Notes under the pieces: generated by a model
Database searches by the model: none
What the model saw: the letters and a program-made list of their open reading frames with translations, nothing else
Told to the model about the DNA's origin: nothing
Program-made: the position numbers and the translations under genes
DNA from: a virus
Taxonomy: Duplodnaviria; Heunggongvirae; Uroviricota; Caudoviricetes
Strand: one strand, 5' to 3'
DNA length: 19,205 nucleotides
Virus record (IMG/VR): IMGVR_UViG_2675903324_000004
In this document: positions 1,223 through 18,892 of the stretch, piece by piece
Layout of the letters: the number at the start of each line of letters is the position of its first letter
Numbering within the stretch: the stretch's first letter is position 1

Positions 1223-1352
1223 AAGTAATCTCCTGGTGGAATGTAATCCACGATCATCCGGGGAAATTAAGAACCCGCCAGTGCCCACCACTGGTGGGGT
1301 GAAGGCTTAACATATCCAGGGATTCGGAACCGATAAATCCTGATAAATATCC

Positions 1353-1886
1353 ATGAACACCAAAATCAAATACGGCCTGTCGGCTGCCGTTCTGGCGCTG
1401 ATTGCCGCAGGGGCGCCTGCGCCTGATATTCTCGACCAGTTTCTGGATGAAAAAGAAGGTAACCACACCACGGCATACCGTGATGGTGCGGGGATCTGGA
1501 CCATTTGTCGTGGTGCCACCAGGGTGGATGGCAAACCTGTCGTCCCGGGCATGAAGTTGTCGAAGAAAAAATGCGACCAGGTTAACGCCATTGAGCGTGA
1601 TAAGGCGCTGGCATGGGTGGAGAAAAACATCCGGGTGCCACTGACTGAACCCCAGAAAGCGGGGATCGCGTCATTCTGCCCGTATAACATTGGCCCCGGT
1701 AAGTGTTTCCCGTCGACGTTTTATAAACGAATTAATGCAGGCGATCGCCGGGGTGCATGCGAGGCGATTCGCTGGTGGATTAAAGACGGTGGCAGAGACT
1801 GCCGTATCCGCTCAAATAACTGTTATGGTCAGGTATCCCGTCGTGACCAGGAGAGCGCGCTGGCGTGCTGGGGTATCGACAGATAA
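1353..1886 (+). CDS. R: SAR endolysin (T4-type lysozyme, glycoside hydrolase family 24)
   Basis: 177 aa. The N-terminus has a weakly hydrophobic Gly/Ala-rich signal-anchor-release segment (YGLSAAVLALIAAGAPAP), followed by the Glu-8aa-Asp-5aa-Thr catalytic spacing (EGNHTTAYRDGAGIWT) typical of T4-lysozyme-like enzymes. It resembles P21 R21 and Stx-phage R-type endolysins from memory. Confidence 0.9.
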   Translation: MNTKIKYGLSAAVLALIAAGAPAPDILDQFLDEKEGNHTTAYRDGAGIWTICRGATRVDGKPVVPGMKLSKKKCDQVNAIERDKALAWVEKNIRVPLTEPQKAGIASFCPYNIGPGKCFPSTFYKRINAGDRRGACEAIRWWIKDGGRDCRIRSNNCYGQVSRRDQESALACWGIDR

Positions 1887-1995
1887 GCCGAATATTTTGC
1901 TGAAAAATGACGTTGGCCAACGCGGACGGATAACACGAAATCCTGCGAACTGGCAAAATGTAAGTGAATAACGTCAGGAACATTATTTCACGCAG

Positions 1996-2025
1996 AGGCA
2001 CCGTAATGGTGCCTTTGTCATTTCT
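1996..2025 (+). terminator. candidate intrinsic terminator downstream of the endolysin gene
   Basis: Hairpin AGGCACC (1996-2002) / loop GTAAT / GGTGCCT (2008-2014), followed by a T-rich but interrupted tract (TTGTCATTTCT). Confidence 0.4.
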
Positions 2026-2160
2026 GCGCTTCGCACAAGCGTAAATAAACCAAAGAACCTTTCAGGATGAGCCCTGGTGGATAACCGGCAGTGGTCTGGT
2101 TAACCCTCTTTGGGCTGGTTATTCCTGTGCGCAGGGTTCATCACTAAAAGGAAATAACCG

Positions 2161-2733
2161 ATGAATATGATGACCGTGCCGTTTCACGGCGATTCTCTTT
2201 ATGTGGTTAACCATAACGGCGAACCATACGTTCCCATGAAACCTGTCGTTGAGGGAATGGGTATGACCTGGCAGTCTCAACACCGCAAATTGATGGAGAG
2301 ATTTAAGACCTGCATCATCGAAATGATGATTCAGCTCCCCGGTGATACTCAGCGTCGTCTGGTTATCTGTCTTGCTTTACGTAAACTTGCAGGTTGGCTG
2401 CAAACCATCAACCCAAATAAAGTTAAACCTGAAATCCGCGACAGAGTCATTCAGTATCAGGAAGAGTGCGACGATGTTCTCTATGAATACTGGACGAAGG
2501 GTTTTGTCGTTAATCCTCGTCAAATGAGCGTGATGGAAGAACTCAACCAGGCATGCGCTGACATGAAACGGGATAAAAACATTGCCAGTCTGTTTGGTAC
2601 AGGGTTAAACGAATGGAAATTGGTTAAAGCTGCGCATGTGTCAAAAATCCGCACATTGATAAACGAAGCGAATCTGCTGATTGATTTTGTCCTGGCTGAT
2701 ACAGGCAAAGGGAAAATAACAAAGGCGGATTGA
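2161..2733 (+). CDS. phage antirepressor-like protein (tentative; N-terminal region resembles P22-AR-N-type antirepressor domains)
   Basis: 190-aa ORF with SD AAGGA upstream of the ATG. The N-terminal motif TVPFHGDSLYVVNHNGEPYVPMKPVVEGMGMTWQSQ matches my memory of proteins annotated as phage antirepressors that sit between R and Rz in some E. coli lambdoid/Stx-type prophages. The family assignment is from memory only. Confidence 0.6.
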   Translation: MNMMTVPFHGDSLYVVNHNGEPYVPMKPVVEGMGMTWQSQHRKLMERFKTCIIEMMIQLPGDTQRRLVICLALRKLAGWLQTINPNKVKPEIRDRVIQYQEECDDVLYEYWTKGFVVNPRQMSVMEELNQACADMKRDKNIASLFGTGLNEWKLVKAAHVSKIRTLINEANLLIDFVLADTGKGKITKAD

Positions 2734-2882
2734 TGGAGTGGTGGCTAATGATATCGGATAAAATCATAACGCTGACAAAGACCATTTGTGTGATTGTCGG
2801 CGTTTCATTTTCGCTAATGATGGTTGCTCTTTTTCTTTCCATAGCCTGGATGGCGTTGAGTTCGGCAGGGCTGGTGGGGTGA
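2733..2882 (+). CDS. small hydrophobic membrane protein (49 aa); possible lysis-accessory protein
   Basis: Not in the ORF track (<60 aa). Its ATG at 2733 overlaps the upstream stop (TGATG) and its TGA at 2880-2882 overlaps the Rz GTG start (GTGA), so it is translationally coupled on both sides. It encodes MEWWLMISDKIITLTKTICVIVGVSFSLMMVALFLSIAWMALSSAGLVG, with one long or two short transmembrane segments. It lacks the charged C-terminal tail usual for holins. Confidence 0.4.
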   Translation: MEWWLMISDKIITLTKTICVIVGVSFSLMMVALFLSIAWMALSSAGLVG

Positions 2883-3322
2883 GCATAAACCGAATTCTTT
2901 CCGCGTTTACCGTTATTCTGCTGGTGGCCTGTGGTGCGCTTAGTTTGGGGCTGAATCATTACCGTGATAACGCCATCGCCTACAAAGAGCAGCGCGATAA
3001 AGCCACATCCATCATCGCTGATATGCAGAAGCGGCAACGTGATGTAGCAGAACTTGACGCCAGATACACAAAGGAGCTTGCTGATGCTAATGCGACTATC
3101 GAAAGTCTCCGTGCTGATGTTTCTGCTGGGCGTAAGCGCCTGCAAGTCGCCGCCACCTGTGCAAACTCAACGACCGGAGCCAGCAGCATGGGCGATGGAG
3201 AAAGCCCAGGACTTACAGCAGATGCTGAACTCAATTATTACCGTCTCCGAAGTGGAATCGACAGGATAACCGCGCAGGTTAACTACCTGCAGGAGTACAT
3301 CAGGACGCAATGCCTGAAATAA
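2879..3322 (+). CDS. Rz: i-spanin (inner-membrane spanin subunit) Rz
   Basis: From the GTG at 2879 the product begins MSINRILSAFTVILLVACGALSLGLNHYRDNAIAYKEQRDK..., i.e. an N-terminal TMD then a coiled-coil periplasmic domain, closely resembling lambda Rz (…AVNHYRDNAITYKAQRDK…). The upstream extension of the track ORF (TTG at 2786) is non-homologous, so the GTG start is preferred. Confidence 0.9.
   Translation: MSINRILSAFTVILLVACGALSLGLNHYRDNAIAYKEQRDKATSIIADMQKRQRDVAELDARYTKELADANATIESLRADVSAGRKRLQVAATCANSTTGASSMGDGESPGLTADAELNYYRLRSGIDRITAQVNYLQEYIRTQCLK
3084..3269 (+). CDS. Rz1: o-spanin (outer-membrane lipoprotein spanin subunit) Rz1, embedded in the +1 frame of Rz
   Basis: ATG at 3084 with a strong SD (AAGGAG at 3071-3076, 7-nt spacer). 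The signal peptide MLMRLSKVSVLMFLLGVSAC carries a lipobox (VSAC), followed by the Pro-rich mature region (KSPPPVQTQRPEPAAW) characteristic of Rz1. It is wholly embedded in Rz, as in lambda. Confidence 0.85.
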   Translation: MLMRLSKVSVLMFLLGVSACKSPPPVQTQRPEPAAWAMEKAQDLQQMLNSIITVSEVESTG

Positions 3323-3354
3323 TTTTTTTGCAAATCACAAAGTCAATTTAATGA

Positions 3355-3377
3355 GCCTCGCGATGCGGGGCTTTTTT
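3355..3377 (+). terminator. rho-independent terminator after Rz/Rz1
   Basis: 7-bp GC-rich stem GCCTCGC (3355-3361) / loop GAT / GCGGGGC (3365-3371), including one G-U pair, followed by TTTTTT (3372-3377). Confidence 0.7.
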
Positions 3378-3520
3378 ATGTCCGCAGTAAACGCGCATCT
3401 CACGCGCATATTAACGAGAGCCTTTCAGTAAGCGGGCCTGAGAATTGCCGTTATAGGTGGCGACCTCTCTCGGGCGGCTTTTCTGTGAGACAGGCTCACT
3501 TTCTAAAAGGTAAAGACGCC

Positions 3521-4018
3521 ATGAAAGCAATCACGCTTTTTAATACACCGATCCGTGTTGATGAATCAGGAATGATCTGCCTCACTGATATGTGGAAAGC
3601 CAGTGGTAAAAGTGAATCTGAATCTCCGTACCACTACCTGCGAAACAAGCAGACCAAAGAGTTCTTAGCCGAGCTGGAGAAAAACCACGAATCTGTGGTT
3701 TTTACTGAGCGCGGTGTACACGGTGGAACATATGGCGGGAAGTTTGTTGCTTATGATTATGCAGCATGGCTAACCCCCGGATTTAAATATGCAGCCTATA
3801 AAGTCCTGGATGACTACTTCACCGGAGAACTTCAGCATCGCAACAGCTTAAGTGCGCAGCTCAATATGAAGTGTCATGAGTTTGATCAGAAAAAAGATAT
3901 GGCGAGCTTCTGTGGGCAAGGTCTGGCGGCATGGCGCTATACGAAACCAGTGTTGGTCGCTGAGATTAACTCCCTGGCTAACCAGCTGCAGATAACGATC
4001 CCCGGGCTTCCGGGATGA
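3521..4018 (+). CDS. KilA-N domain-containing protein
   Basis: N-terminal region MKAITLFNTPIRVDESGMICLTDMWKASGK…GGKFVAYDYAAWLTPGFKYAAYKVLDDYF resembles KilA-N (APSES-like) DNA-binding domains common in prophage accessory regions. ATG 3521 is preferred over the GTG at 3485 by homology, but the start is uncertain. Confidence 0.7.
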   Translation: MKAITLFNTPIRVDESGMICLTDMWKASGKSESESPYHYLRNKQTKEFLAELEKNHESVVFTERGVHGGTYGGKFVAYDYAAWLTPGFKYAAYKVLDDYFTGELQHRNSLSAQLNMKCHEFDQKKDMASFCGQGLAAWRYTKPVLVAEINSLANQLQITIPGLPG

Positions 4019-4272
4019 GTGATCGTGTCATTGAATGCGCCTCCAGAGCGGGGCGCGACTTCTCAGAGTTCATGAAAGGCGAGAAGGGCATGATGGAAGC
4101 ATTGGCCTCGGTGGATGAGTTTGGCGAGCAGCTGCGCCTCAACGGCTGTGTCAATCATCACTTTGTTAGCTACATGATGCGGAACTCGATCATGCAGGCA
4201 TTCATGGACATGGCAAAAGCCGAGAGGAAAGAAGAGCGCCGGCGTAAGCGAGCGGAAGCAAAAGCGAAGTAG
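4015..4272 (+). CDS. small hypothetical protein (85 aa) with a basic, Arg/Lys-rich C-terminal tail
   Basis: The ATG at 4015 overlaps the stop of the KilA-N gene (ATGA), indicating translational coupling. The C-terminus is AKAERKEERRRKRAEAKAK. No family recognised. Confidence 0.5.
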   Translation: MSDRVIECASRAGRDFSEFMKGEKGMMEALASVDEFGEQLRLNGCVNHHFVSYMMRNSIMQAFMDMAKAERKEERRRKRAEAKAK

Positions 4273-4309
4273 CCATTACAAAGCCTACCTACGGGTGGGC
4301 TTGATAATG
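4273..4309. repeat. copy 1 of a repeated post-stop hairpin element (ATTACAAA - 5-bp stem AAGCC/GGCTT with 12-nt loop containing CCTAC - GATAATG)
   Basis: Lies immediately 3' of the TAG stop at 4270-4272 and resembles the element at 4873-4913 (roughly 75-80 percent identity by eye, same architecture). Confidence 0.6.
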
Positions 4310-4497
4310 AAACCGGAATTTATTCTGGGCAACCAGTTACGGCAGTACAGCGAAACAACCCAAGCCAGTAAGTGGGGAAATAACACTGGCAGCCACTGAA
4401 AGATGAACCTCCAGCCTTATGGCAAAAAAGATTCTTTGTGGTGGCAGACTGATGGAAAGACATCCTAATCAAGCAACCACTCCACAGGGTCATAATT

Positions 4498-4872
4498 ATG
4501 AACGACCAGCAAATCGAAAAAGAAATCGTTGAGAAAGGCAAAACGGCACCGCGTGTAACACCTGAGAAAATTGAAGGCCTCATTTGCAGTGAGCATTTTT
4601 TCACTGCTGCGCAGGGTGGCCACTAGGCTAAAGAAGATGACCTTATTTATAATCCGGAGCCTTATGTCGAAGCCACCCCTGATGCTCTGCACCTTCTTAC
4701 TTTCTGCGTATTGGTACTGAAGAATGGCTTCACCGTTACCGGAGAGAGTGCCTGTGCAAGTCCGGAAAATTTTGATGCAGAAATTGGTCGGAAGATTGCC
4801 CGGCAGAATGCTGTAAACAAAATCTGGATGCTCGAAGGTTACTTGCTGAAGCAGAAGCTAAGCGAACAGTAG
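4498..4872 (+). pseudogene. small phage accessory protein (possibly of the N4 Gp49 / Sf6 gp66-like family, tentative) interrupted by an in-frame TAG at 4624-4626
   Basis: The reading frame is continuous from ATG 4498 to TAG 4870-4872 (124 codons) except for a single in-frame TAG at codon 43. The downstream part (…LHLLTFCVLVLKNGFTVTGESACASPENFDAEIGRKIARQNAVNKIWMLEGYLLKQ) is clearly protein-like and has no in-frame ATG of its own other than one 14 codons from the end. The competing minus-strand ORFs (4320-4604, 4465-4692) look non-coding. Confidence 0.5.
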
Positions 4873-4913
4873 TTATTACAAAAGCCATTCCCTACAGAGT
4901 GGCTTTGATAATG
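4873..4913. repeat. copy 2 of the repeated post-stop hairpin element (7-bp stem AAAGCCA/TGGCTTT, 12-nt loop containing CCTAC, then GATAATG)
   Basis: Lies immediately 3' of the TAG stop at 4870-4872 and has the same architecture and flanking motifs as 4273-4309. Confidence 0.6.
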
Positions 4914-5229
4914 GCTTATACCCTACACGGGATAACTTAATTGATATCCTTTTTAACGGATAAAGGCATTTCAGCCTGACATAGCCATGCGCCGTATCGT
5001 CGCCGTATTCCTGCATTAACAGAGACCGCAGCCCGACAGGGAGACTCCTCTGCGAGAGTGTGCGGGGATAATCAAAAACGATACACACCGGGGTTTACCG
5101 CGTTAACGGAGCGCGGCGTTGTCCCCTCATGGTCGCTGGTCCGGTGCGATGGTGGAAGAAACTGGATTTTGTTGCAACTGATAACCATTATCATTTTGCG
5201 GGTCCTTTCCGGCGATCCGGGCCGTTACG

Positions 5230-5241
5230 GGGCGGCGACCT
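5230..5241. other. cosN: cosN cohesive-end site (12-nt overhang sequence GGGCGGCGACCT)
   Basis: The sequence 5208-5270, GCGGGTCCTTTCCGGCGATCCGGGCCGTTACG|GGGCGGCGACCT|CGCGGGTTTTCGCTATTTATGAAAATTTT, matches my memory of the lambda right-end/left-end junction almost base for base. It lies about 170 bp upstream of the terminase small subunit gene, as in lambda. Confidence 0.9.
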
Positions 5242-5400
5242 CGCGGGTTTTCGCTATTTATGAAAATTTTTAGGGAAAAATCAGATCCGTTCTTCTTCTT
5301 TTTAACTGATTGATTATCAATAGAATTTTAAAAATATAAAAGGATCTGACAAAGGCTGTTTTTGTCCGAAAACGCCATTTTCAGATCCTTTCTGGTTCCC
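5242..5400 (+). promoter_or_regulatory. cosB: cosB-like terminase-binding region with three R-site-like elements and an IHF-consensus-like AT-rich segment
   Basis: R3-like TCAGATCCGTTCTTCTTC (5281-5298); inverted R2-like AAAAGGATCTGACAAAGG (5338-5355); R1-like TTCAGATCCTTTCTGG (5380-5395). Spacing relative to cosN resembles lambda R3/R2/R1. AT-rich 5304-5337 contains a WATCAANNNNTTR-like match on the minus strand (AATCAATCAGTTA). Confidence 0.65.
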
Positions 5401-5410
5401 GGGGGAGTGT

Positions 5411-5959
5411 ATGAACGTCAATAAGAAAAAACTGGCCGATATTTTTGGCGTTGATGTCAGGACCATCACCGCCTGGCAGAGTCAGGGGTTACCACTAGTT
5501 TCTGGTGGAGGGAAAGGGACTGAATCAGTTTTTGATACAACTGCTGCCATTCAGTGGTATGCGCAGAGGGAAGCTGATATTGAAAACGAAAAACTCCGTA
5601 AAGAGATCGAGGATTTGAGGGCTGCCAGCGAATCAGACCTTCAGCCCGGCACCATTGATTACGAACGTTACCGACTGACGAAGGCACAGGCCGATGCACA
5701 GGAGCTGAAAAATGCTCGTGAGGAAGGCCTTGTCCTCGAGACGGAGTTATTTACCTACATCTTTCAGCGAGTGGCACAGAATATATCAGGGATCCTTGTC
5801 CGTGTCCCTCAGACACTGCAGCGTAAATACCCTGATATATCACCCGTACATCTTGATGCTGTGAAAACTGAAATCGCGAAAGCATCCGATGTGGCTTCTG
5901 AAGCCGGTGAGAATGTGCGCAGGTGGATTGATGATTTCAGACGAACTGAGGGCGGCTAA
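5411..5959 (+). CDS. Nu1: terminase small subunit (gpNu1 homolog)
   Basis: 182 aa with SD GGGGGAG upstream. Strong similarity from memory to lambda Nu1 (MEVNKKQLADIFGASIRTIQNWQEQGMPVLRGGGKGNEVLYDSAAVIKWYAE…), including the N-terminal winged-HTH region. Confidence 0.95.
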
Positions 5960-7859
5960 TTCTGCAGGAGCGATAGCAACCGGCCTCCTTGCGCTAAAAA
6001 TTCCTGTCCCTCTGACGACAGTTCAGTGGGCAGATCGACATTATTACCTTCCGAAAGAGTCATCTTACACCCCGGGGCGGTGGGAAACACTGCCGTTTCA
6101 GGTTGCCATCATGAACAGCATGGGGAATGACCGGATCCGCACTGTTAATCTGATTAAATCTGCCCGTGTTGGTTATACAAAGATGTTGCTGGGAGTGGAG
6201 GCTTATTTTATTGAGCATAAATCACGCAACAGCCTTCTTTTCCAGCCCACGGATTCTGCTGCTGAAGATTTTATGAAATCTCATGTGGAACCCACGATCA
6301 GGGATGTGCCGGTTTTACTCGATCTTGCACCGTGGTTTGGGCGTAAACATCGTGATAATACCCTCACGCTGAAACGTTTTTCATCGGGCGTGGGCTTCTG
6401 GTGCCTGGGCGGGGCTGCCGCTAAAAACTACCGTGAAAAATCCGTGGACGTGGTCTGCTATGACGAACTTTCCTCGTTCGAACCGGATGTCGAAAAAGAG
6501 GGTTCGCCAACCCTGCTTGGGGATAAACGTATTGAGGGCTCTGTATGGCCCAAATCCATTCGCGGCTCGACGCCTAAAATCAAAGGCACCTGCCAGATCG
6601 AAAAAGCGGCCAACGAGTCGGCGCATTTCATGCGTTTTTATGTGCCCTGCCCACACTGTGGGGAGGCGCAGTATCTGAAATTTGGCGATGAATCCACGCC
6701 TTTTGGCCTTAAATGGGAGAAGGACAGCCCCGAAAGCGTTTTCTACCTCTGTGAACATCATGGCTGCGTGATCCATCAGTCTGAGCTTGACCAGAGCAAC
6801 GGGCGGTGGATCTGTGAAAACACGGGGATGTGGACCCGTGACGGTCTGACGTTTTTCAGCGCCGCGGATAATGAAATTCCGCCGCCACGCTCCATCACGT
6901 TCCACATCTGGACGGCGTACAGTCCGTTCACCACCTGGGTACAGATAGTCTATGACTGGCTGGATGCACTGAAAGATCCCAACGGCGTGAAAACCTTTGT
7001 GAACACCACGCTGGGCGAGACCTGGGAAGAGGCCGTGGGCGAAAAACTCGATCACCAGGTACTGATGGATAAGGTTGTGCGTTACACGGCGGCGGTGCCT
7101 GCCCGGGTGGTTTATCTGACGGCGGGCATTGACTCGCAGCGAAACCGTTTTGAGATGTATGTCTGGGGATGGGCTCCGGGAGAGGAAGCCTTTCTGGTGG
7201 ATAAAATCATCATTATGGGGCGTCCCGATGAGGAAGAGACGCTGTTACGTGTGGATGCGGCGATCAACAAAAAATACCGCCATGCAGACGGAACCGAAAT
7301 GACCATTTCCCGGGTCTGCTGGGACACCGGGGGGATCGATGGCGAAATCGTTTATCAGCGGTCAAAAAAACACGGTGTTTTCCGGGTGCTGCCGGTAAAA
7401 GGCGCATCTGTCTATGGCAAGCCGGTGATCACCATGCCAAAAACCCGCAATCAGCGGGGCGTGTATCTGTGTGAAGTGGGGACGGACACCGCAAAAGAAA
7501 TTCTCTATGCCCGTATGAAAGCCGAGCCCACGCCTGCGGATGAAGCCACGTCGTATGCCATCCGTTTTCCTGATGATCCGGAGATTTTTTCGCAGACAGA
7601 GGCGCAGCAACTGGTGGCGGAAGAGCTGGTGGAGAAGTGGGAAAAAGGAAAGATGCGTCTGTTGTGGGATAACAAAAAGCGGCGTAACGAAGCGCTGGAC
7701 TGCCTGGTGTATGCCTACGCGGCATTACGTGTGTCCGTGCAACGCTGGCAGCTTGATCTGGCTGTACTGGCAAAATCCCGGGAAGAAGAGACGACCCGGC
7801 CAACCCTGAAAGAACTGGCAGCGAAGCTGTCCGGAGGAGTGAATGGTTACAGTCGCTGA
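5931..7859 (+). CDS. A: terminase large subunit (gpA homolog; ATPase/endonuclease)
   Basis: Collinear similarity to lambda gpA over its whole length (e.g. [53 protein letters not shown]). ATG 5931 (SD AGGTGG) gives a ~29-nt overlap with the Nu1 3' end as in lambda; ATG 5889 and 5913 are alternative starts in the same frame. Confidence 0.95.
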
Positions 7860-8049
7860 ACTGCAGGCGCTGCGTCAGGCGCGCCTTGATTTATTAACCG
7901 GTAAACGGGTGGTGTCTGTCCAGAAAGATGGTCGCAGAATTGAATATACGGCGGCTTCTCTGGATGAGCTTAACCGTGCGATCAATGATGCGGAGTCGGT
8001 ACTGGGGACAACCCGCCGTCGCCGTCGTCCGCTGGGAGTGAGGTTATGA
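7843..8049 (+). CDS. W: head-tail joining / head stabilisation protein (gpW homolog)
   Basis: 68 aa with SD GGAGGAG. Similar to lambda W (…[21 protein letters not shown]…). Overlaps the A stop and the B start. Confidence 0.9.
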   Translation: MVTVAELQALRQARLDLLTGKRVVSVQKDGRRIEYTAASLDELNRAINDAESVLGTTRRRRRPLGVRL

Positions 8050-9638
8050 AACGAACGCCTGTCCTGATTGATGTGAACGGCGTTCCGCTTCGGGAGAGCC
8101 TCAGCTACCACGGGGGCGGTGCAGGATTTGGCGGGCAAATGGCGGAGTGGTTGCCACCGGCGCAGAGTGCCGATGCAGCCCTGCTGCCTGCGTTGCGTCT
8201 GGGGAATGCCCGGGCAGATGATCTGGTGCGCAATAACGGGATAGCGGCTAATGCGGTGGCCCTGCATAAGGATCATATTGTCGGGCATATGTTTCTGATC
8301 AGCTACCGTCCGAACTGGCGCTGGCTGGGGATGCGGGAGACTGCGGCAAAAAGTTTTGTCGATGAGGTGGAGGCGGCCTGGTCGGAATACGCCGAAGGGA
8401 TGTTTGGCGAGATCGACGTGGAAGGGAAACGCACGTTTACGGAATTTATCCGTGAAGGTGTGGGCGTTCATGCGTTTAACGGCGAAATCTTTGTGCAGCC
8501 GGTCTGGGATACGGAGAGCACGCAACTGTTTCGTACGCGTTTTAAAGCCGTGAGTCCGAAACGGGTGGACACGCCAGGACACGGTATGGGGAACCGTTTT
8601 CTGCGGGCCGGTGTGGAGGTCGATCGATATGGTCGTGCCGTTGCGTACCATATCTGTGAGGATGATTTTCCGTTCTCCGGGAGTGGACGATGGGAACGGA
8701 TCCCGCGTGAACTTCCCACCGGGCGTCCGGCCATGCTGCATATTTTCGAGCCGGTGGAGGACGGGCAGACCCGTGGGGCCAATCAGTTTTACAGCGTAAT
8801 GGAACGGCTGAAGATGCTCGATTCCCTGCAGGCAACACAGCTTCAGTCGGCCATAGTGAAGGCGATGTATGCAGCGACGATTGAAAGTGACCTTGATACC
8901 GAAAAGGCCTTTGAATATATCGCCGGTGCGCCGCAGGGGCAGAAGGATAATCCGCTTATTAATATTCTGGATAAGTTCTCCACCTGGTATGACACGAATA
9001 GCGTGACGCTGGGCGGTGTCAAAATTCCGCACCTTTTCCCCGGTGATGATCTGAAACTTCAGACCGCGCAGGATTCAGACAATGGATTTTCGGCGCTTGA
9101 ACAGGCGCTGCTGCGGTATATCGCCGCCGGTCTTGGCGTTTCCTACGAACAGTTGTCCCGTGATTACTCGAAGGTCAGTTATTCAAGTGCCCGCGCATCC
9201 GCCAATGAGTCGTGGCGCTATTTTATGGGGCGGCGAAAATTTATTGCGTCCCGGCTGGCCACGCAGATGTTTTCCTGCTGGCTGGAAGAGGCACTTCTTC
9301 GGGGGATTATTCGTCCGCCACGGGCACGTTTTGATTTTTATCAGGCGCGATCAGCCTGGTCACGGGCTGAGTGGATTGGAGCCGGAAGAATGGCCATTGA
9401 CGGGCTCAAGGAGGTTCAGGAATCAGTGATGCGCATTGAGGCCGGACTGAGCACGTATGAGAAAGAGCTGGCGCTGATGGGCGAGGATTATCAGGACATT
9501 TTCCGCCAGCAGGTCAGGGAATCTGCAGAGCGGGAAAAAGCCGGACTCTCACATCCGGTGTGGATAGCGCAGGCGTATCAGCAGCAGATAGCGGAGAGTC
9601 GCAGGCCGGAAGAGGAGACAACACCACGTGAGACGTAA
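8046..9638 (+). CDS. B: portal protein (gpB homolog)
   Basis: 530 aa, collinear with lambda gpB (533 aa), e.g. HIFEPVEDGQTRGANQFYSVMERLKMLDSLQATQLQSAIVKAMYAATIES. Confidence 0.95.
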   Translation: MKRTPVLIDVNGVPLRESLSYHGGGAGFGGQMAEWLPPAQSADAALLPALRLGNARADDLVRNNGIAANAVALHKDHIVGHMFLISYRPNWRWLGMRETAAKSFVDEVEAAWSEYAEGMFGEIDVEGKRTFTEFIREGVGVHAFNGEIFVQPVWDTESTQLFRTRFKAVSPKRVDTPGHGMGNRFLRAGVEVDRYGRAVAYHICEDDFPFSGSGRWERIPRELPTGRPAMLHIFEPVEDGQTRGANQFYSVMERLKMLDSLQATQLQSAIVKAMYAATIESDLDTEKAFEYIAGAPQGQKDNPLINILDKFSTWYDTNSVTLGGVKIPHLFPGDDLKLQTAQDSDNGFSALEQALLRYIAAGLGVSYEQLSRDYSKVSYSSARASANESWRYFMGRRKFIASRLATQMFSCWLEEALLRGIIRPPRARFDFYQARSAWSRAEWIGAGRMAIDGLKEVQESVMRIEAGLSTYEKELALMGEDYQDIFRQQVRESAEREKAGLSHPVWIAQAYQQQIAESRRPEEETTPRET

Positions 9639-11133
9639 TCTTTCACACATTATTGCCGCAGCATTCAATGAACCGCTGCTTCTGGAGCCCGCCTATGCGC
9701 GGGTTTTCTTTTGCGCGCTCGGGCGCGAGATGGGGGCAGCAAGTCTTTCGGTACCACAACAGCAGGTACAGCTTGATGCTCCCGGAATGCTGGCTGAAAC
9801 GGACGAGTACATGGCCGGAGGTAAACGACCGGCCCGTGTTTACCGGGTGGTGAACGGTATTGCTGTACTGCCGGTGACCGGCACGCTGGTGCACCGGCTG
9901 GGCGGTATGCGGCCATTTTCCGGAATGACAGGCTATGACGGCATTGTCGCCTGTCTTCAGCAGGCAATGGCAGATAGCCAGGTGCGGGGCGTACTGCTGG
10001 ACATTGACAGTCCTGGCGGGCAGGCCGCCGGCGCGTTTGACTGCGCTGACATGATTTACCGCCTCCGTCAGCAGAAGCCGGTCTGGGCACTGTGCAATGA
10101 CACGGCCTGTTCTGCAGCCATGCTGCTGGCGTCGGCCTGCTCCCGACGGCTGGTTACCCAGACATCCCGTATCGGCTCCATTGGCGTGATGATGAGCCAT
10201 GTCAGCTATGCCGGTCATCTGGCGCAGGCCGGGGTGGATATCACGCTGATTTATGCCGGGGCGCACAAGGTGGATGGCAATCAGTTTGAAGCTTTACCGG
10301 CAGAGGTGCGTCAGGACATGCAGCAGCGGGTTGATGCGGCGCACCGGATGTTTGCCGAAAAAGTGGCGATGTATACGGGGCTGTCTGTGGAAGCTGTCAC
10401 GGGGACAGAGGCTGCCGTTTTTGAAGGTCAGTCCGCTATTAAGGCCGGACTGGCGGATGAATTAATCAATGCGTCGGATGCCATCAGCGTGATGGCTGCG
10501 GCGCTGAACACTCATGATACAGGAGGCACTATGCCGCAATTAACTGCAACGGAAGCTGCCGCGCAGGAGAACCAGCGAGTGATGGGGATCCTGACGTGTC
10601 AGGAAGCGAAAGGACGTGAACAGCTTGCCACGATGCTGGCAGGACAACAGGGCATGAGCATTGAACAGGCCCGGGCGATTCTGGCCGCGGCGGCACCACA
10701 GCAGCCGGTGGCATCCGCGCAGAGTGAAGCCGATCGCATTATGGCGTGTGAAGAAGCGAAAGGTCGTGAACAACTGGCGGCAACGCTGGCGGCGATGCCG
10801 GAGATGACGGTGGAAAAAGCCCGCCCGATCCTCGCTGCCTCACCGCAGGCGAATGCCGGGCCCTCACTTCGTGATCAGATCATGGCCCTGGATGAGGCAA
10901 AAGGGGCAGAAGCGCAGGCTGAAAAACTGGCGGCCTGCCCGGGAATGACCGTGGAGAACGCCCGGGCTGTGCTGGCTGCGGGATCAGGTAAGGCCGAACC
11001 GGTCTCTGCATCCACAACCGCCCTGTTTGAACATTTCATGGCGAACCATTCACCGGCAGCAGTGCAGGGTGGCGTGCCACAGACGTCAGCAGACGGTGAT
11101 GCGGACGTGAAAATGCTCATGGCCATGCCATGA
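9628..11133 (+). CDS. C: head maturation protease / minor capsid protein (gpC homolog, S49/ClpP-like)
   Basis: GTG start at 9628 overlapping the B stop. N-terminal ~300 aa similar to lambda gpC (AFNEPLLLEPAYARVFFCAL…, NGIAVLPVTGTLV…, RLVTQTSRIGSIGVMM). The C-terminal third contains the scaffold-like repeats. Confidence 0.9.
   Translation: MRRNLSHIIAAAFNEPLLLEPAYARVFFCALGREMGAASLSVPQQQVQLDAPGMLAETDEYMAGGKRPARVYRVVNGIAVLPVTGTLVHRLGGMRPFSGMTGYDGIVACLQQAMADSQVRGVLLDIDSPGGQAAGAFDCADMIYRLRQQKPVWALCNDTACSAAMLLASACSRRLVTQTSRIGSIGVMMSHVSYAGHLAQAGVDITLIYAGAHKVDGNQFEALPAEVRQDMQQRVDAAHRMFAEKVAMYTGLSVEAVTGTEAAVFEGQSAIKAGLADELINASDAISVMAAALNTHDTGGTMPQLTATEAAAQENQRVMGILTCQEAKGREQLATMLAGQQGMSIEQARAILAAAAPQQPVASAQSEADRIMACEEAKGREQLAATLAAMPEMTVEKARPILAASPQANAGPSLRDQIMALDEAKGAEAQAEKLAACPGMTVENARAVLAAGSGKAEPVSASTTALFEHFMANHSPAAVQGGVPQTSADGDADVKMLMAMP
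10531..11133 (+). CDS. Nu3: scaffolding protein (gpNu3-like), nested in-frame within the 3' part of C
   Basis: In-frame internal ATG at 10531 preceded by a consensus SD (AGGAGG at 10521-10526). A nested in-frame scaffold gene is the lambda C/Nu3 arrangement. The exact start is inferred, not proven. Confidence 0.55.
   Translation: MPQLTATEAAAQENQRVMGILTCQEAKGREQLATMLAGQQGMSIEQARAILAAAAPQQPVASAQSEADRIMACEEAKGREQLAATLAAMPEMTVEKARPILAASPQANAGPSLRDQIMALDEAKGAEAQAEKLAACPGMTVENARAVLAAGSGKAEPVSASTTALFEHFMANHSPAAVQGGVPQTSADGDADVKMLMAMP
10576..11013 (+). repeat. three diverged in-frame tandem repeats (~44-53 codons each) within C/Nu3
   Basis: Protein-level repeats: RVMGILTCQEAKGREQLATMLAGQQGMSIEQARAILAAAAPQ… / RIMACEEAKGREQLAATLAAMPEMTVEKARPILAASPQ… / QIMALDEAKGAEAQAEKLAACPGMTVENARAVLAAGSG…. 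Approximate unit boundaries are 10576, 10735 and 10879. Confidence 0.7.
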
Positions 11134-11169
11134 AGCCAGTGCTGACCATCAATATGAGGTTTTAACAAA

Positions 11170-11517
11170 ATGGTGACGAAAACCATCACTGAACAACGTG
11201 CGGAAGTACGTATTTTTGCCGGTAATGATCCGGCTCATACCGCCACAGGCAGCAGCGGGATTTCTCAGGCAACACCGGCACTGACCCCCCTGATGCTGGA
11301 TGAAGCCAGCGGGAAACTGGTGGTCTGGGACGGACAGAAAGCCGGTAGTGCGGTTGGCATACTGGTACTGCCGCTTGAAGGCACAGAGACGGTGCTGACC
11401 TATTACAAGTCGGGGACCTTTGCGACGGAGGCAATCCGCTGGCCTGACAGTGTGGATGAACACAAAAAGGCAAATGCCTTTGCCGGCACAGCCCTGAGTC
11501 ACGCGGCGCTGCCGTAA
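11170..11517 (+). CDS. D: head decoration protein (gpD homolog)
   Basis: 115 aa, similar to lambda gpD (…DPAHTATGSSG…TPLMLD…KLVVWDG…AVGILV…YKSGTF…AFAGTA…). Confidence 0.9.
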   Translation: MVTKTITEQRAEVRIFAGNDPAHTATGSSGISQATPALTPLMLDEASGKLVVWDGQKAGSAVGILVLPLEGTETVLTYYKSGTFATEAIRWPDSVDEHKKANAFAGTALSHAALP

Positions 11518-11574
11518 CACGTTATCAGGCCGCCGCGTTGGCCTGACTGATTTCTGAATGAAAGGAACTGATTT

Positions 11575-12603
11575 ATGGGATTGTTTACGACCCGCCAGTT
11601 ACTCGGTTATACCGAACAAAAAGTGAAATTTCGTGCGCTGTTTCTGGAACTGTTTTTCCGCCGTACGGTGAATTTCCACACCGAAGAGGTGATGCTGGAC
11701 AAAATTACCGGAAAAACGCCGGTGGCGGCCTATGTCTCCCCGATCGTTGAAGGAAAAGTGCTTCGCCATCGCGGTGGTGAAACCCGCGTGTTACGTCCGG
11801 GCTACGTCAAGCCCAAACACGAATTTAATTACCAGCAGGCGGTTGAGCGCCTTCCTGGTGAAGATCCGGCTCAGCTGAACGACCCGGCCTACCGTCGTCT
11901 GCGTATCATTACCGATAACCTCAAACAGGAAGAGCACGCCATTGTCCAGGTGGAAGAAATGCAGGCGGTGAATGCCGTGCTGTATGGCAAATACACCATG
12001 GAAGGGGATCAGTTTGATACTGTCGAGGTGGATTTCGGGCGCTCTGAAGGAAATAACATTGAGCAGGCTGACGGTAAAAAATGGTCTGAGCAGGACCGTG
12101 ATACGTTTGATCCGACGCATGATATTGACCTCTACTGCGATCAGGCCAGCGGCCTTGTGAATATCGCCATTATGGACGGTACGGTCTGGCGTCTGCTGAA
12201 TGGCTTTAAGCTGTTCCGCGAAAAACTGGATACCCGTCGCGGCTCAAATTCACAACTCGAAACGGCAGTGAAAGATCTGGGCGCAGTGGTGTCCTTCAAG
12301 GGGTATTACGGCGATCTGGCCATTGTGGTGGCGAAAACGTCTTATGTGGCAGAGGACGGTACCGAAAAACGTTATCTGCCGGAGGGCATGCTGGTGCTGG
12401 GGAATACGGCGGCAGAGGGGATTCGTTGCTATGGTGCCATTAAGGATGCACAGGCGTTGTCTGAAGGAGTGGTGGCTTCTTCCCGTTACCCGAAACACTG
12501 GCTGACCGTGGGCGATCCGTCCTGTGAATTCACCATGACGCAGTCCGCTCCGCTGATGGTGCTGCCGGATCCGGATGAGTTTGTGGTGGTACAGGTGAAA
12601 TAA
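11575..12603 (+). CDS. E: major capsid protein (gpE homolog)
   Basis: 342 aa with SD AAGGA. Collinear with lambda gpE (341 aa), e.g. PGYVKPKHE, RRGSNSQLETAVKDLG, FTMTQSAPLMVLPDPDEFV. Confidence 0.95.
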   Translation: MGLFTTRQLLGYTEQKVKFRALFLELFFRRTVNFHTEEVMLDKITGKTPVAAYVSPIVEGKVLRHRGGETRVLRPGYVKPKHEFNYQQAVERLPGEDPAQLNDPAYRRLRIITDNLKQEEHAIVQVEEMQAVNAVLYGKYTMEGDQFDTVEVDFGRSEGNNIEQADGKKWSEQDRDTFDPTHDIDLYCDQASGLVNIAIMDGTVWRLLNGFKLFREKLDTRRGSNSQLETAVKDLGAVVSFKGYYGDLAIVVAKTSYVAEDGTEKRYLPEGMLVLGNTAAEGIRCYGAIKDAQALSEGVVASSRYPKHWLTVGDPSCEFTMTQSAPLMVLPDPDEFVVVQVK

Positions 12604-12610
12604 TCCGTGA

Positions 12611-12640
12611 GCGGGGGCGAAATGCCCCCGTGTCTTTTTT
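12611..12640 (+). terminator. intrinsic terminator/attenuator immediately after the major capsid gene
   Basis: Stem GCGGGGGC (12611-12618) / loop GAAAT / GCCCCCGT (12624-12631), then a T-tract (12634-12640). The next gene's SD AGGAGG follows at 12644-12649. Confidence 0.7.
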
Positions 12641-12654
12641 CACAGGAGGCTGAG

Positions 12655-13038
12655 ATGGCAACAAAAGAAGAAAATCTGAATCGTCTTCGTCAACTGGCTG
12701 GCCTGCTGGGGCGCGAGGCGGATATGTCGGGGAGTGCTGCGGATATTGCTCAACGTGTGTCTGAGTGGGAAGAGGAGCTTGCTGTTTCCCCGGAGGGCAT
12801 TATGCACTCTGATGAGAGCGGGGCTGATCAAAATCACACAGACGATGGTGAGCAGTTGAACAACACGGATGCTCCGGATGATGTTAAAGCCGTCCGGGTA
12901 CGGAAGTGCCTGCAAGTAATGGGGTATTGCCCGGAGACAGGTCGTCCCGTTGAGCTGGCGTTACGGGGGATGCGTGTTCTGGTGCCATCATCACTGGCAA
13001 CGGCCATGATACAGCACGGAACGGCTGAATATGCGTGA
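12655..13038 (+). CDS. FI: DNA packaging / head assembly protein (gpFI-like)
   Basis: ATG 12655 with a consensus SD (AGGAGG, 5-nt spacer); the upstream GTG at 12607 would span the terminator. Position between E and FII, an acidic central linker and overall size match lambda FI. Sequence similarity to lambda FI is weaker than for the neighbouring genes. Confidence 0.7.
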   Translation: MATKEENLNRLRQLAGLLGREADMSGSAADIAQRVSEWEEELAVSPEGIMHSDESGADQNHTDDGEQLNNTDAPDDVKAVRVRKCLQVMGYCPETGRPVELALRGMRVLVPSSLATAMIQHGTAEYA

Positions 13039-13384
13039 TTTTCAGAATGCCTTTGATGCTGCCCTCGCCGGGGTAGACAGTACGATCGTTGAAGTGATGG
13101 GGCTCTGTGCGCAGTTCACCTCGGGGGCACAGTGTGGCAGCGAAGTTCAGGGGGTTTTTGACGATCCGGAGTCGCTGGGGTTTGCCGGTGGCGGGGTCCG
13201 TATTGAAGGAAGCAGCCCGTCATTATTTGTGCGGACGGATACGGTTCGTGCCGTGCGGCGTGGTGACACGCTGACCATTAATGGTGAGATATTCTGGGTG
13301 GATCGTGTTTCTCCGGATGACGGGGGCAGCTGTTATCTCTGGCTCAACCGTGGTCAACCACCCGCAGTTAACCGGCGACGATAA
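13031..13384 (+). CDS. FII: head-tail connector protein (gpFII homolog)
   Basis: 117 aa, similar to lambda FII (…GVFDDPE…GVRIEGSSPSLFVRTD…RRGDTLTI…FWVDRVSPDDGGSC.LWL.RG.PPAVNRRR). Confidence 0.9.
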   Translation: MRDFQNAFDAALAGVDSTIVEVMGLCAQFTSGAQCGSEVQGVFDDPESLGFAGGGVRIEGSSPSLFVRTDTVRAVRRGDTLTINGEIFWVDRVSPDDGGSCYLWLNRGQPPAVNRRR

Positions 13385-13399
13385 ACGCAGGGTGAAATT

Positions 13400-13975
13400 A
13401 TGGCGATAAAAGGGCTTGATCAGGCGATTGACAATCTGAGCCGGGTTCGTAAAAACGCCATTCCGGCGGCTTCAGCAATGGCCATTAACCGCGTGGCCAC
13501 AACGGCGATTAATCAGTCTTCATCACAGGTTGCCCGGGAGACAAAGGTTCGCCGGAAACTGGTTAAGGAACGGTCCAGACTGAAACGGGCGACGGTCAGA
13601 AATCCGAATGCCAGAATTATCGTTAACCGCGGTGATCTCCCTGTGATTAAGCTGGGGATCAGGATGCTGGGGCGTCGCCCGAACAGCATACTTAAAGCCG
13701 GTCAGCATCGTTATCAGCGGGCATTTATCCAGCGATTAAATAATGGGCGCTGGCATGTTATGCAACGTCTTCCCCAGGCCAGATATGAGGAGGGCAATGA
13801 CGACAAGGGAAGGAAAAAGCGTAATCGCCTTCCCATTCAGGTGGTGAAAATCCCGATGGCGGCCCCACTGAAACAGGCATTTGATGAGAATGTTGACCGT
13901 ATCCGGCGTGAACGCCTGCCTAAAGAACTGGCATACGCGCTGAAACAACAACTGAGGATTGCGATAAAACGATGA
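13400..13975 (+). CDS. Z: tail completion protein (gpZ homolog)
   Basis: 191 aa, similar to lambda Z (MAIKGLEQA…ARETKVRRKLVKER.RLKRATV.NP.ARI.VNRGDLPVIKLG…VVKIPMA…RIRRERLPKEL). Confidence 0.9.
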   Translation: MAIKGLDQAIDNLSRVRKNAIPAASAMAINRVATTAINQSSSQVARETKVRRKLVKERSRLKRATVRNPNARIIVNRGDLPVIKLGIRMLGRRPNSILKAGQHRYQRAFIQRLNNGRWHVMQRLPQARYEEGNDDKGRKKRNRLPIQVVKIPMAAPLKQAFDENVDRIRRERLPKELAYALKQQLRIAIKR

Positions 13976-14367
13976 AACACACTGACATTCGTGCCGCAGT
14001 GCTGGATGCACTCGAGCAGCATGAACACGGGGCGACGCTGTTTGATGGTCGCCCCGTTGTTTTTGACGAAGAGGATTTTCCTGCGATCGCGGTTTATCTG
14101 ACGGATGCAGAGTATACCGGTGAAGAGCTGGATGCAGATACCTGGCGGGCCACACTGCATATTGAGGTGTTTTTACCGGCACAGGTACCTGATTCGGAGC
14201 TCGATCAGTGGATGGAAAGCCGGATTTATCCGGCGATGACTGCGATCCCTGCACTGGCAGGACTGATTACCACGATGGTTACGCAGGGCTATGAGTATCG
14301 TCGTGATGACGATATGGCGTTATGGAGCTCTGCAGATCTGACTTATTCCATTACATACGAGATGTGA
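13972..14367 (+). CDS. U: tail terminator protein (gpU homolog)
   Basis: 131 aa, near-collinear with lambda U ([15 protein letters not shown]…[24 protein letters not shown]…DLTY.ITYEM). ATGA overlap with Z. Confidence 0.95.
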
Positions 14368-14374
14368 GGACGAT

Positions 14375-15127
14375 ATGGCAACACCAAATCCCCTGGAGCC
14401 AGTAAAAGGTGCCGGTACCACTCTGTGGGTTTACAACGGCAAGGGTGATGCTTATGCAAACCCGTTGTCAGACGCTGACTGGCAGCGACTGGCTAAGGTG
14501 AAGGATCTGACGCCGGGCGAGATGACGGCAGAATCCTACGATGATAACTACCTGGATGATGAAGACGCAGACTGGACCGCGACCGGGCAGGGGCAGAAAT
14601 CTGCAGGTGATACCAGTTTTACGCTGGCCTGGAAACCGGGAGAGGAAGGTCAGAAAGGGCTTATAGGCTGGTTTGAAAGCGGCGATGTCCGGGCCTATAA
14701 AATCCGTTTTCCGAATGGCACGGTGGATGTGTTTCGTGGCTGGGTCAGCAGTATCGGTAAGGCCGTGACGGCGAAAGAAGTGATCACCCGCACGGTGAAA
14801 GTCACTAACGTGGGTAAACCTTCTGTAGCGGAAGAACGCAGCAAAATTACGCCGGTCAGTGCGATTAAGGTGACGCCTACATCCGGTACGGTGGCAAAAG
14901 GGAAAACAACCACCCTGACGGTTTCTTTTGAGCCGGAAAGTGCAACCGACAAGACGTTCAGAGCGGTTTCCGCCGATCCGTCGAAAGCCACCATTAGTGT
15001 GAAAGATATGACAATTACGGTAAACGGCGTGGCGACAGGTAAGGTGCAGATCCCTGTGGTGAGCGGAAATGGTCAGTTCGCCGCAGTGGCTGAAGTCACC
15101 GTTACTGAAGCGGGCGCTGCAGGGTAA
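14375..15127 (+). CDS. V: major tail tube protein (gpV homolog) with C-terminal Ig-like domain
   Basis: 250 aa, highly similar to lambda V ([10 protein letters not shown]…[55 protein letters not shown]…). Confidence 0.95.
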
Positions 15128-15140
15128 ACGGAGGTAATAC

Positions 15141-15572
15141 ATGTTTCTGAAAACAGAACAATTTGAATATAACGGTGTGTCTGTCACGCTTTCCGAATTG
15201 TCTGCGCTGCAGCGTATCGAGCATCTTGCCCTTCTGAAACGGCGTGCAGAACAGGCAGAATCCAGCGGCAACCTGCAGGTAAGCGTGGAAGATCTCGTCA
15301 GAACCGGCGCGTTTCTGGTGGCGATGTCCCTGTGGCATAACCATCCACAGAAAACGCAGTCACCGTCAATGAATGAGGACGTGATGAAGATAGAGCAGGA
15401 AGTGCTCACCACCTGGCCTGCCGATGCCATTGCCCGGGCGGAAGACGTGGTGTTGTGCCTGTCCGGGATGATCGAAGCTGTTCGTCCGGATACTGATATT
15501 ACTGAAGTGGCGAAAAATAACACGCTGACTGATGATGATTTTTCTGCGGGAAAGTCTTCGACGGCGAGCTGA
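15141..15572 (+). CDS. G: tail assembly chaperone (gpG homolog)
   Basis: 143 aa with SD GGAGG. Similar to lambda G (MFLKTE.FE.NGV.VTLSELSALQRIEHLAL.KR.AEQAES…), ending …AGKSSTAS just after the slippery site. Confidence 0.9.
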   Translation: MFLKTEQFEYNGVSVTLSELSALQRIEHLALLKRRAEQAESSGNLQVSVEDLVRTGAFLVAMSLWHNHPQKTQSPSMNEDVMKIEQEVLTTWPADAIARAEDVVLCLSGMIEAVRPDTDITEVAKNNTLTDDDFSAGKSSTAS

Positions 15573-16012
15573 ACTTTGCCCTCAGACTGGCGCGTGAGAT
15601 GGGGAGACCCGACTGGCGCGCCATGCTTGCCGGGATGACATCCACCGAATATGCCGACTGGCGACGTTTTTACCGCACGCATTATTTTCACGATACCCAG
15701 CTGGATATGCATTTTTCCGGGCTGACGTACGCCGTACTCAGCCTGTTTTTATACGATCCGGATATGCATCCCTCGGATTTCAGTCTGCTTGTCCCCCGGC
15801 GTGAGGAAGCGCAGACGGAGAGGCCGGATGAGGAAGACATGCTGATGCAGAAAGCGGCAGGACTTGCCGGAGGCGTCCGGTTCGGCGGGGAGGGCGGGGG
15901 CGATATTTCACCTTCTGCGGATGTGGTGGATGTCAGCGAGGATGATGTCGCATTAATGATGGCTTCTGCGGGGATTTCCGGAGGTGTGAGATATGTCCCA
16001 GCCGGTTGGTGA
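15141..16012 (+). CDS. G-T: tail assembly chaperone fusion protein G-T, produced by -1 frameshift at 15548-15554
   Basis: G frame to the slippery site, then the -1 frame (track ORF 15599-16012 plus its upstream open extension). The T-region sequence is similar to lambda gpT (GRPDWRAMLAGM.STEYADW.RFY.THYFHD…LDMHFSGLTY.VLSLF). Confidence 0.8.
15548..15554 (+). promoter_or_regulatory. programmed -1 ribosomal frameshift slippery heptamer G GGA AAG (G -> G-T fusion)
   Basis: The heptamer GGGAAAG sits in the correct phase of the G frame (GGA = codon 15549-15551). The -1 frame is open from here to 16012 and encodes …GKVFDGELNFALRLAREMGRPDW…, matching the lambda gpT region. Confidence 0.85.
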
Positions 16013-18566: not shown

Positions 18567-18892
18567 AAACCTTTCGCTGGAAAGTGAAGCCGGATATGGA
18601 GGTGAACTCGCAGCCATCGGTGCGTGAAGTGCGTTTTGGTGACGGGTACTCACAGCGTATGGCGGCAGGGCTGAATGCTGACCTGAAAACATACCGGGTG
18701 ATGCTTTCCGTGAGCCGGGAGGAGGCCCGGCATCTGGAAGCGTTCCTGGCAGAGCACGGGGGCTGGAAGGCATTTTTGTGGAAGCCACCCTATGCATACC
18801 GGCAGATAAAGGTGACCTGTGCCGGGTGGTCTGCGCGGGTCGGGATGTTGCGCGTTGAGTTCAGCGCGGAGTTTAAGCAGGTGGTGAACTGA
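18563..18892 (+). CDS. M: minor tail protein (gpM homolog)
   Basis: 109 aa, similar to lambda M (MKTFRWKVKP.M.V…VR.VRFGDGYSQR…FLWTPPY…RQIKVTCA.WS.RV.MLRVEFSAEF.QVVN). ATGA overlap with the H stop. Confidence 0.9.
   Translation: MKTFRWKVKPDMEVNSQPSVREVRFGDGYSQRMAAGLNADLKTYRVMLSVSREEARHLEAFLAEHGGWKAFLWKPPYAYRQIKVTCAGWSARVGMLRVEFSAEFKQVVN

Follow-up and report, generated by a model that had tools for sequence, protein, structure and literature searches.

Which DNA would be packaged by a phage whose cohesive ends are those of lambda and whose terminase-binding elements are not? The question is raised by a 19,205-bp stretch of DNA, here called the window, from a member of the Caudoviricetes (IMG/VR record IMGVR_UViG_2675903324_000004). 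A first-pass annotation, made from the letters alone, had placed a lambda-type cos site with variant cosB elements at 5208 to 5410. In the searchable literature, a scope that stops short of two 2015 papers (Virology 476:115 and 482:260), packaging specificities are documented for lambda, 21, and N15 only. Sequence comparisons lead us to propose, with a probability of about 0.8, that this is a cos site of the lambda family read by the terminase encoded just downstream. It would join a Gifsy-1-type recognition pair to the cosN of lambda and 21 and to a terminase that is otherwise 21-like, and would have a specificity of its own.

The cos region has the full lambda-type anatomy

The 12-nt cohesive-end sequence cosN, GGGCGGCGACCT, lies at 5230 to 5241 on the plus strand and is identical at 12 of 12 positions to cosN of lambda, 21, and phi80. 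Its flanks, TTACG before GGGCGGCGACCT and CGCGGG after it, are also those of lambda. By homology, the nicks would fall at 5229/5230 on the top strand and at 5241/5242 on the bottom strand, and the virion ends would lie there. Counted from the nick, bp 1 to 41 match lambda at 41 of 41 positions, and the identity to lambda stops at bp 41. In this ungapped comparison anchored at the nick, bp 13 to 40 are 28/28 identical to lambda, and the 50 bp upstream of the nick are 42/50 identical, cosQ included. The first-pass reading of the cosN core and its flanks as lambda nearly base for base is borne out by these numbers.

The packaging termination subsite cosQ (GGGTCCT) is found at 5200 to 5206 on the plus strand, at -30 to -24 from the top-strand nick. 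Sequence and offset are as in lambda and in the annotated phage 21 genome (OL657228.1), and cosQ is kept in nearly all loci of the survey described below. Downstream of cosN, the AT-rich spacer I2 that separates it from cosB (bp 18 to 50, as defined in PMC4856287) occupies 5247 to 5279 on the plus strand. The IHF site I1 (AATCAATCAGTTA) lies between R3 and R2, at 5303 to 5315 on the minus strand, and its position and strand are those of the annotated I1 of phage 21 (bp 74 to 86). It is a perfect instance of the consensus WATCAANNNNTTR and the single match to it across the whole window. The distance from cosN to the terS ATG is 181 bp, versus 190 bp in lambda. All calls come from the anchored ungapped comparison and from motifs, which replaced a four-way MAFFT alignment in which R2 and R1 were misaligned.

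The locus has a cosN with nick-site flanks, a cosQ about 30 bp upstream, a complex cosB, and Nu1-family terS and gpA-family terL genes. These features support the assignment of 5200 to 5410, by sequence, as a lambda-type cos in the lambda register, with the order cosQ, cosN, I2, and R3-I1-R2-R1.

An RNA family at the cos region was also considered and rejected. An Rfam scan of 4900 to 5700 gave sub-threshold hits only (STnc540, E = 0.36; a miRNA, E = 0.99), and the STnc540 hit is a chance match that is missing from the Gifsy-1, L110, L106, and phage 21 loci.

Three R elements carry a variant core

R3 (AATCAGATCCGTTCTT; 5279 to 5294, plus strand) is predicted to be the main site at which TerS binds. 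Its core CAGATCC is at bp 53 to 59, with GATC at bp 55 to 58. R2 (5336 to 5351, minus strand) is inverted, with the reverse complement TGTCAGATCCTTTTAT and its core at bp 114 to 120, as in lambda. R1 (TTTCAGATCCTTTCTG; 5379 to 5394, plus strand) is direct and follows R3 by 100 bp. Each of the three elements has TCAGATCC in place of the lambda TCGTTTCC. The core GGATCTGA that the first-pass annotation had read here, against GGAAACGA in lambda, agrees with this result, because the lambda cores at the corresponding places are CGTTTCC and GGAAACG. The alignment of cosB to lambda that it had called for likewise gave R elements that differ from those of lambda, with AGA and not GTT at bp 54 to 56.

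The octamer TCAGATCC occurs four times in the window, versus about 0.67 expected by chance, and three of the copies are in cosB, at 5281 (+), 5342 (-), and 5381 (+). The longer motif AGATCCKTTY matches exactly at R3, R2, and R1 and nowhere else in the window. An independent repeat search returned R3/R1 as a direct repeat with a spacing of 100 and R3/R2 and R2/R1 as inverted repeats. The direct, inverted, direct order that had been claimed, with lambda-like spacing, therefore stands: the R3 and R2 cores are in exact lambda register, and R1 is 2 bp nearer cosN. Beyond the changed bases, bp 57 to 68 of R3 (TCCGTTCTTCTT) are identical to lambda. Among seven diverged members of the AGATCC class, the blocks AGATCCGTTCTTCTT in R3, AAAGGA..TG in R2, and AGATCCTTTC in R1 are invariant, and the spacers drift.

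The terminase is 21-like outside its DNA-binding domain

The terS gene (5411 to 5959, plus strand) encodes a 182-aa protein of the Nu1 family (Pfam Phage_Nu1, PF07471; E = 1.6e-86, 288 bits). Its ATG at 5411 is preceded by a GGGGGAG ribosome-binding site, and its 3' end overlaps terL (5931 to 7859, plus strand), which encodes a 642-aa gpA-family protein with GpA_ATPase and GpA_nuclease domains (PF05876 and PF20454). TerS matches 21 gp1 at 82% identity and Nu1 of lambda and phi80 at 52 to 53%. For TerL, identity is about 95% with 21 gp2 and about 66% with lambda gpA. The closest characterized terminase is therefore that of phage 21, not that of lambda, which the first-pass annotation had used as its reference.

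The TerS DNA-binding domain (DBD; residues 1 to 55, encoded at 5411 to 5575 on the plus strand) shares 46 of 55 residues with Gifsy-1, 40 with phage 21, and 33 with lambda. The remainder of TerS is phage 21-like. Residues 56 to 140 are identical to phage 21 at 76 of 85 positions (72 for Gifsy-1 and 51 for lambda), and the TerL-binding C terminus (42 aa) is identical at 33/42 to phage 21, 20/41 to Gifsy-1, and 10/41 to lambda. In DNA sequence, the window is close to phage 21 from cosN as far as about bp 50 and once more beyond about bp 285; in the intervening stretch, which covers cosB and the codons of the DBD, identity falls to 30 to 60%.

Solved TerS DBDs in the PDB are those of lambda (1J9I, 6HN7, and 7LW0), phage 21 (7LWR), and Gifsy-1 (7LXS). 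Among DBD-only PDB chains, 7LXS is the nearest to the window DBD. Literature searches by PDB code returned no descriptive paper for 7LXS or 7LWR.

The recognition helix and the R core form a Gifsy-1-type pair

Codons 17 to 24 of terS (5459 to 5482, plus strand) encode the recognition helix RTITAWQS, with T20, A21, and S24. The helix limits are those of PMC9026076, and published work places the contacted bases at bp 55 to 63. Residues 16 to 24 read VRTITAWQS in the window, PRTIERWQS in phage 21, and IRTIQNWQE in lambda, and R3 bp 53 to 60 read CAGATCCG, CGTGTCGG, and CGTTTCCG, respectively. The TerS comparison agrees with the segments first noted, DVRTITAWQ here and SIRTIQNWQ in lambda.

Published genetics has shown that discrimination between lambda and 21 is set by TerS residues 20 and 24 and R3 bp 56 and 59. 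Taken over these positions, the window is like neither phage, save for S24, which is common to 21. The lambda specificity pair (CGTTTCC, with T:A at bp 56 and C at bp 59, and RTIQNWQ(E/D)) is absent; the window has CAGATCC and RTITAWQS. The phage 21 pair (C(G/A)TGTCGG, with G:C at bp 56 and G at bp 59, and PRTIERWQS) is also absent, and bp 54 to 56, bp 59, and residues 16, 20, and 21 all differ. The Gifsy-1-type pair is present, namely, three R elements with AGATCC(G/T)TT(C/T) and a helix of the form VRT(I/V)T(A/G/S)WQS. By sequence, the DBD and the R cores are of a third predicted recognition type, which is neither lambda nor 21 and is common to Gifsy-1. The pair is therefore not peculiar to the window.

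Comparison with known systems

Gifsy-1 (NC_010392.1; 7LXS) shares with the window the R core AGATCC(G/T)TTC in three R elements, the helix save for I19V, the wing SGGGKG, and the layout of three R elements plus an IHF site. The three R sequences and the IHF site were noted in PMC9026076, and the literature counts Gifsy-1 as a lambda-like cos phage and includes its left end in a published alignment. However, its cosN (GGGCGGCAGCGT) differs at bp 8, 9, and 11, its host genus is Salmonella, and its TerS C terminus and TerL are less similar to those of the window than are the phage 21 counterparts. Fourteen loci of our survey (L112 to L125) are 99.5% identical to Gifsy-1 NC_010392.1 and have the cosN GGGCGGCAGCGT, the helix VRTVTAWQS, and the R3 CCAGATCCGTTCT.

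Phage 21 has identical cosQ and cosN, the same R3-I1-R2-R1 layout, and the close terminase described above, including S24. It differs in its R core, in having E20 and R21 in place of T and A and P16 in place of V, and in its wing (CASKGSKG versus LVSGGGKG), and the window cosB is 7 bp shorter. Lambda is alike in bp 1 to 41, cosQ, the R3/R2 register, R3 bp 57 to 68, and the Nu1 and gpA families. It is unlike in R bp 54 to 56, in Q20, N21, and E24 against T20, A21, and S24, and in TerS (52% identity overall; C terminus 10/41). N15, compared by published description, and Monarch also combine a lambda-like cosN with an R/helix pair that has diverged; the window has the complex three-R cosB, and N15 has a single-R cosB. 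The N15 R3 has no similarity to the R3 of lambda and 21 (PMC4669245), and the N15 terminase packages lambda DNA despite its diverged recognition system.

The Gifsy-1 R sites and the DBD structure 7LXS are already public. The additions made here are a table of the co-variation, the limits of the cassette, and a count of how often it occurs in Escherichia coli.

Helix type and R-core type co-vary one to one

We took 39 related loci from GTDB genomes and a further 80 from IMG/VR, 119 in all, and added reference phages. An anchored script called cosN, R3, R2, R1, and the helix at each locus, and 103 loci, 72 of them non-identical, were compared. Helices with QN(E/D) at residues 20, 21, and 24 go with (G/A)TT..C at R3 bp 54 to 56 and 59 (23 loci), helices with ERS go with (G/A)(T/A)G..G (44 loci), and helices with T(A/G/S)S go with AGA..C (32 loci). 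Across the 103 loci, helix type matches R-core type one to one, with no real exception; the two off-diagonal cells are both AGATCC sites shifted by 1 bp in register. None of the 103 loci pairs AGATCC sites with a lambda-type helix, or lambda-type sites with a helix of the AGATCC class. The co-variation of cosB and the small terminase subunit proposed in the first pass is thus recovered across the family.

The AGATCC class is represented by 32 loci (22 non-identical sequences) and has six cosN variants. Every class contains several cosN sequences, and therefore the classes are not single clones. Co-variation between neighboring sequences is partly what inheritance as a block would yield. However, the class-specific core is present in all three R copies in every class. 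This sharing points to a single reader protein, for linkage alone is insufficient to produce it. The invariant parts also pair, with R17, T18, W22, and Q23 matched to T57 and C58.

Two further pairs were seen, IRTIDRWQT with CATGTC(A/G)(G/T)TT in PhiR5_1 (PV340545.1) and TRTITTWQS with CACTTCC in a Serratia proteamaculans locus (L040). These pairs suggest that there are more recognition types among lambda-like cos phages than the three documented ones.

cosB and the recognition helix behave as a swappable cassette

Two surveyed phage contigs, the 21-type L083 and the AGATCC-type L068 (1200 to 1720), have DNA that is about 98 to 99% identical between cosQ and I2 and also beyond about terS codon 24, and 124 of 125 residues of TerS 56 to 180 are the same. 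Between R3 and about helix codon 23, their sequences are scrambled. Because the difference is confined to this interval, the interval behaves as a swappable cassette. Therefore, the exchange unit, as read from these alignments, would be cosB plus about the first 23 terS codons, with conserved sequence at either limit, I2 on one side and the WQSQG codons on the other. The L083/L068 pair amounts to a natural, near-isogenic specificity swap that is fit for testing the recognition code. In the window, the DNA upstream of cosB matches Stx1a phages with lambda-type Nu1 at about 95% identity, and this similarity ends at about bp 41, which points again to cassette exchange.

In L058 (IMGVR_UViG_2529293040_000025, 1380 to 1500), a relative with a 99%-identical TerS, an exact 100-bp deletion has occurred between the R3/R1 direct repeats. 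It retains one hybrid R (ATCAGATCCTTTCTGG) and is without I1 and R2, and its ATG follows bp 1 of cosN by 81 bp. This R3/R1 fusion is a natural counterpart of the unequal crossover from which the single-R cosB of N15 has been proposed to arise. Escherichia phage IdasGreatGrand (PP925829.1) has a hybrid TerS: its DBD and R sites are 21-type, and the protein is lambda-type from about residue 70 on, including the C terminus. It resembles the lambda-21 hybrids made in the laboratory.

The cassette in E. coli and its prophage context

A query spanning R3 through the helix codons was run against 5,426 complete E. coli genomes. The window-type cassette was present in 223 of them (about 4%), always at 95% identity or above. 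The 21-type cassette was found in 584 and the lambda-type cassette in 4,012, a count that takes in the noh genes of cryptic prophages. In the phage-isolate collection, only Gifsy-1 is of the AGATCC type. PhiR5_1, the best DNA match among isolates, is excluded from the window type by its different helix/R pair, and so is IdasGreatGrand (82% identical in the DBD), with its 21-type helix and R sites and lambda-type C terminus.

The window from 1310 to 19205 is 99.1% identical to the Stx1a prophage of bovine E. coli OkiPb01681; positions 1 to 1309 do not align to that prophage, and the lysis-region module differs between the two. In OkiPb01681, an 861-nt cos/terS query matches four places and the cassette matches one, which indicates that lambda-like cos regions of other cassette types coexist there. 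A lambda-like cos/terS query matches a median of two places per E. coli genome and a maximum of 13.

The homologue of the tape-measure gene H (15993 to 18566, 857 codons) has an in-frame TAG at 17181 to 17183 (codon 397), and the OkiPb01681 annotation treats H with the same stop as a pseudogene. The prophage is probably tail defective unless the TAG is suppressed or a co-resident prophage helps. Defective O157 prophages are packaged and rescued by co-resident prophages (PMC2669165). In the window, none of the terS, terL, portal, protease, decoration, and capsid genes is disrupted. Just upstream of cos, the annotation of a 99%-identical genome has, at the counterpart of 4498 to 4872, a Gp49-family pseudogene interrupted by a stop.

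Lambda Nu1/cos sequences also appeared in GTDB assemblies of non-enteric bacteria, Kitasatospora, Chromatium, Paenibacillus, Oceanobacillus, Bradyrhizobium, and Limosilactobacillus included (L016 to L023, L030, L033 to L039, L041, L043, and L045). These are often short contigs or low-coverage contigs of about 48.4 kb that start at cosN, and they are almost certainly contamination with lambda control DNA.

A model for packaging initiation and its alternatives

From the observed anatomy, family membership, co-variation, and cassette-like inheritance, we infer binding, nick positions, and specificity as follows. By homology with lambda and 21, IHF would bend the DNA at I1. A TerS winged-helix dimer would dock on R3 and R2 across the bend, and R1 would serve as an accessory site. 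The R core (C/T)AGATCC(G/T)TTC would be read by the helix VRTITAWQS, with the variable contacts made between residues 20, 21, and 24 and R bp 54 to 56 and 59. The docked TerS would anchor the 21-like TerL, which would nick 12 nt apart, at 5229/5230 and 5241/5242. Packaging would run rightward from 5230, and cosQ would serve in termination at the next cos. On this evidence, the packaging specificity probably differs from that of either lambda or 21. The phage is predicted to package DNA with an AGATCC-type cosB and to disfavor the DNA of lambda-type and 21-type prophages that share its cell. Terminases of those two types should in turn disfavor AGATCC-type DNA.

The cos site could instead be functional and share its specificity with lambda, fully or in one direction, with the three-base change in the R core tolerated because the rest is lambda-like. 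The identity of R3 bp 57 to 68 to lambda and the lambda positions of R3 and R2 are in keeping with such sharing. We consider it unlikely, because the changed bases include bp 56, the genetically defined contact of lambda E24 and a point of discrimination, and because helix residues 20, 21, and 24 are all unlike lambda. Moreover, none of the 103 loci mixes a lambda-type helix with AGATCC sites, which is unexpected if the pairs are interchangeable. The conserved R3 segment and the N15 asymmetry do suggest that recognition could cross the types in part or in one direction. A specificity like that of phage 21, which the 82% TerS identity, the 95% TerL identity, and the shared S24 might suggest, is highly improbable. 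The R3 core is unlike 21 at bp 54, 55, 56, and 59, and at bp 62 as well, and residues 20 and 21 are TA and not ER. Position 59 and residue 20 are themselves published 21/lambda determinants, and 21-type loci always carry (G/A)TGTCGG.

The site might also be an unused relic in a decaying prophage, its pattern reflecting ancestry only. The amber stop in H and the neighboring Gp49-family pseudogene of the near-identical genome fit such decay, yet the packaging and head genes from terS to capsid are intact, and in diverged hosts the R blocks and I1 stay unchanged next to spacers that vary. The cassette is also conserved at 95% or above in 223 genomes, and defective O157 prophages are known to be packaged with the help of co-resident ones. 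We therefore regard a relic as improbable, though somewhat less so than a 21-like specificity, and we favor a functional site with a Gifsy-1-type pair and its own specificity.

Dam sites within the R cores

A GATC Dam site lies within each R core (5284 to 5287, 5343 to 5346, and 5384 to 5387). In R3, the methylatable adenine is at bp 56, the lambda/21 discrimination position. Across the AGATCC class, R3 and R1 always keep the GATC, and R2 has lost it in two members, L110 and L068. A phage N6-adenine methyltransferase is encoded in the near-identical prophage genome. As a speculative and rather doubtful idea, Dam methylation of these sites might tune the initiation of packaging, with TerS binding either requiring or being blocked by full or hemi-methylation. 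The N6-methyl group at bp 56 would lie in the major groove and face a helix whose variable residues, T20 and A21, are small and apolar. The pac site of P1 offers a parallel. If true, such a reading would couple packaging to replication or to the methylation state. Alternatively, the GATC may be no more than a component of the word that TerS recognizes.

Implications for lambda-like prophages

The paradigm drawn from lambda, 21, and N15 is unchanged, and the window holds an ordinary variant of a well-known system. One E. coli strain often carries several lambda-like prophages with the same cosN. Among them, the pair formed by cosB and the TerS helix would decide which genomes a terminase packages, and so which prophages rescue, compete with, or mobilize one another, Stx-converting prophages included. 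A third type, present in about 4% of complete E. coli genomes and carried in a small exchangeable cassette, would provide a simple sequence rule for cross-packaging groups.
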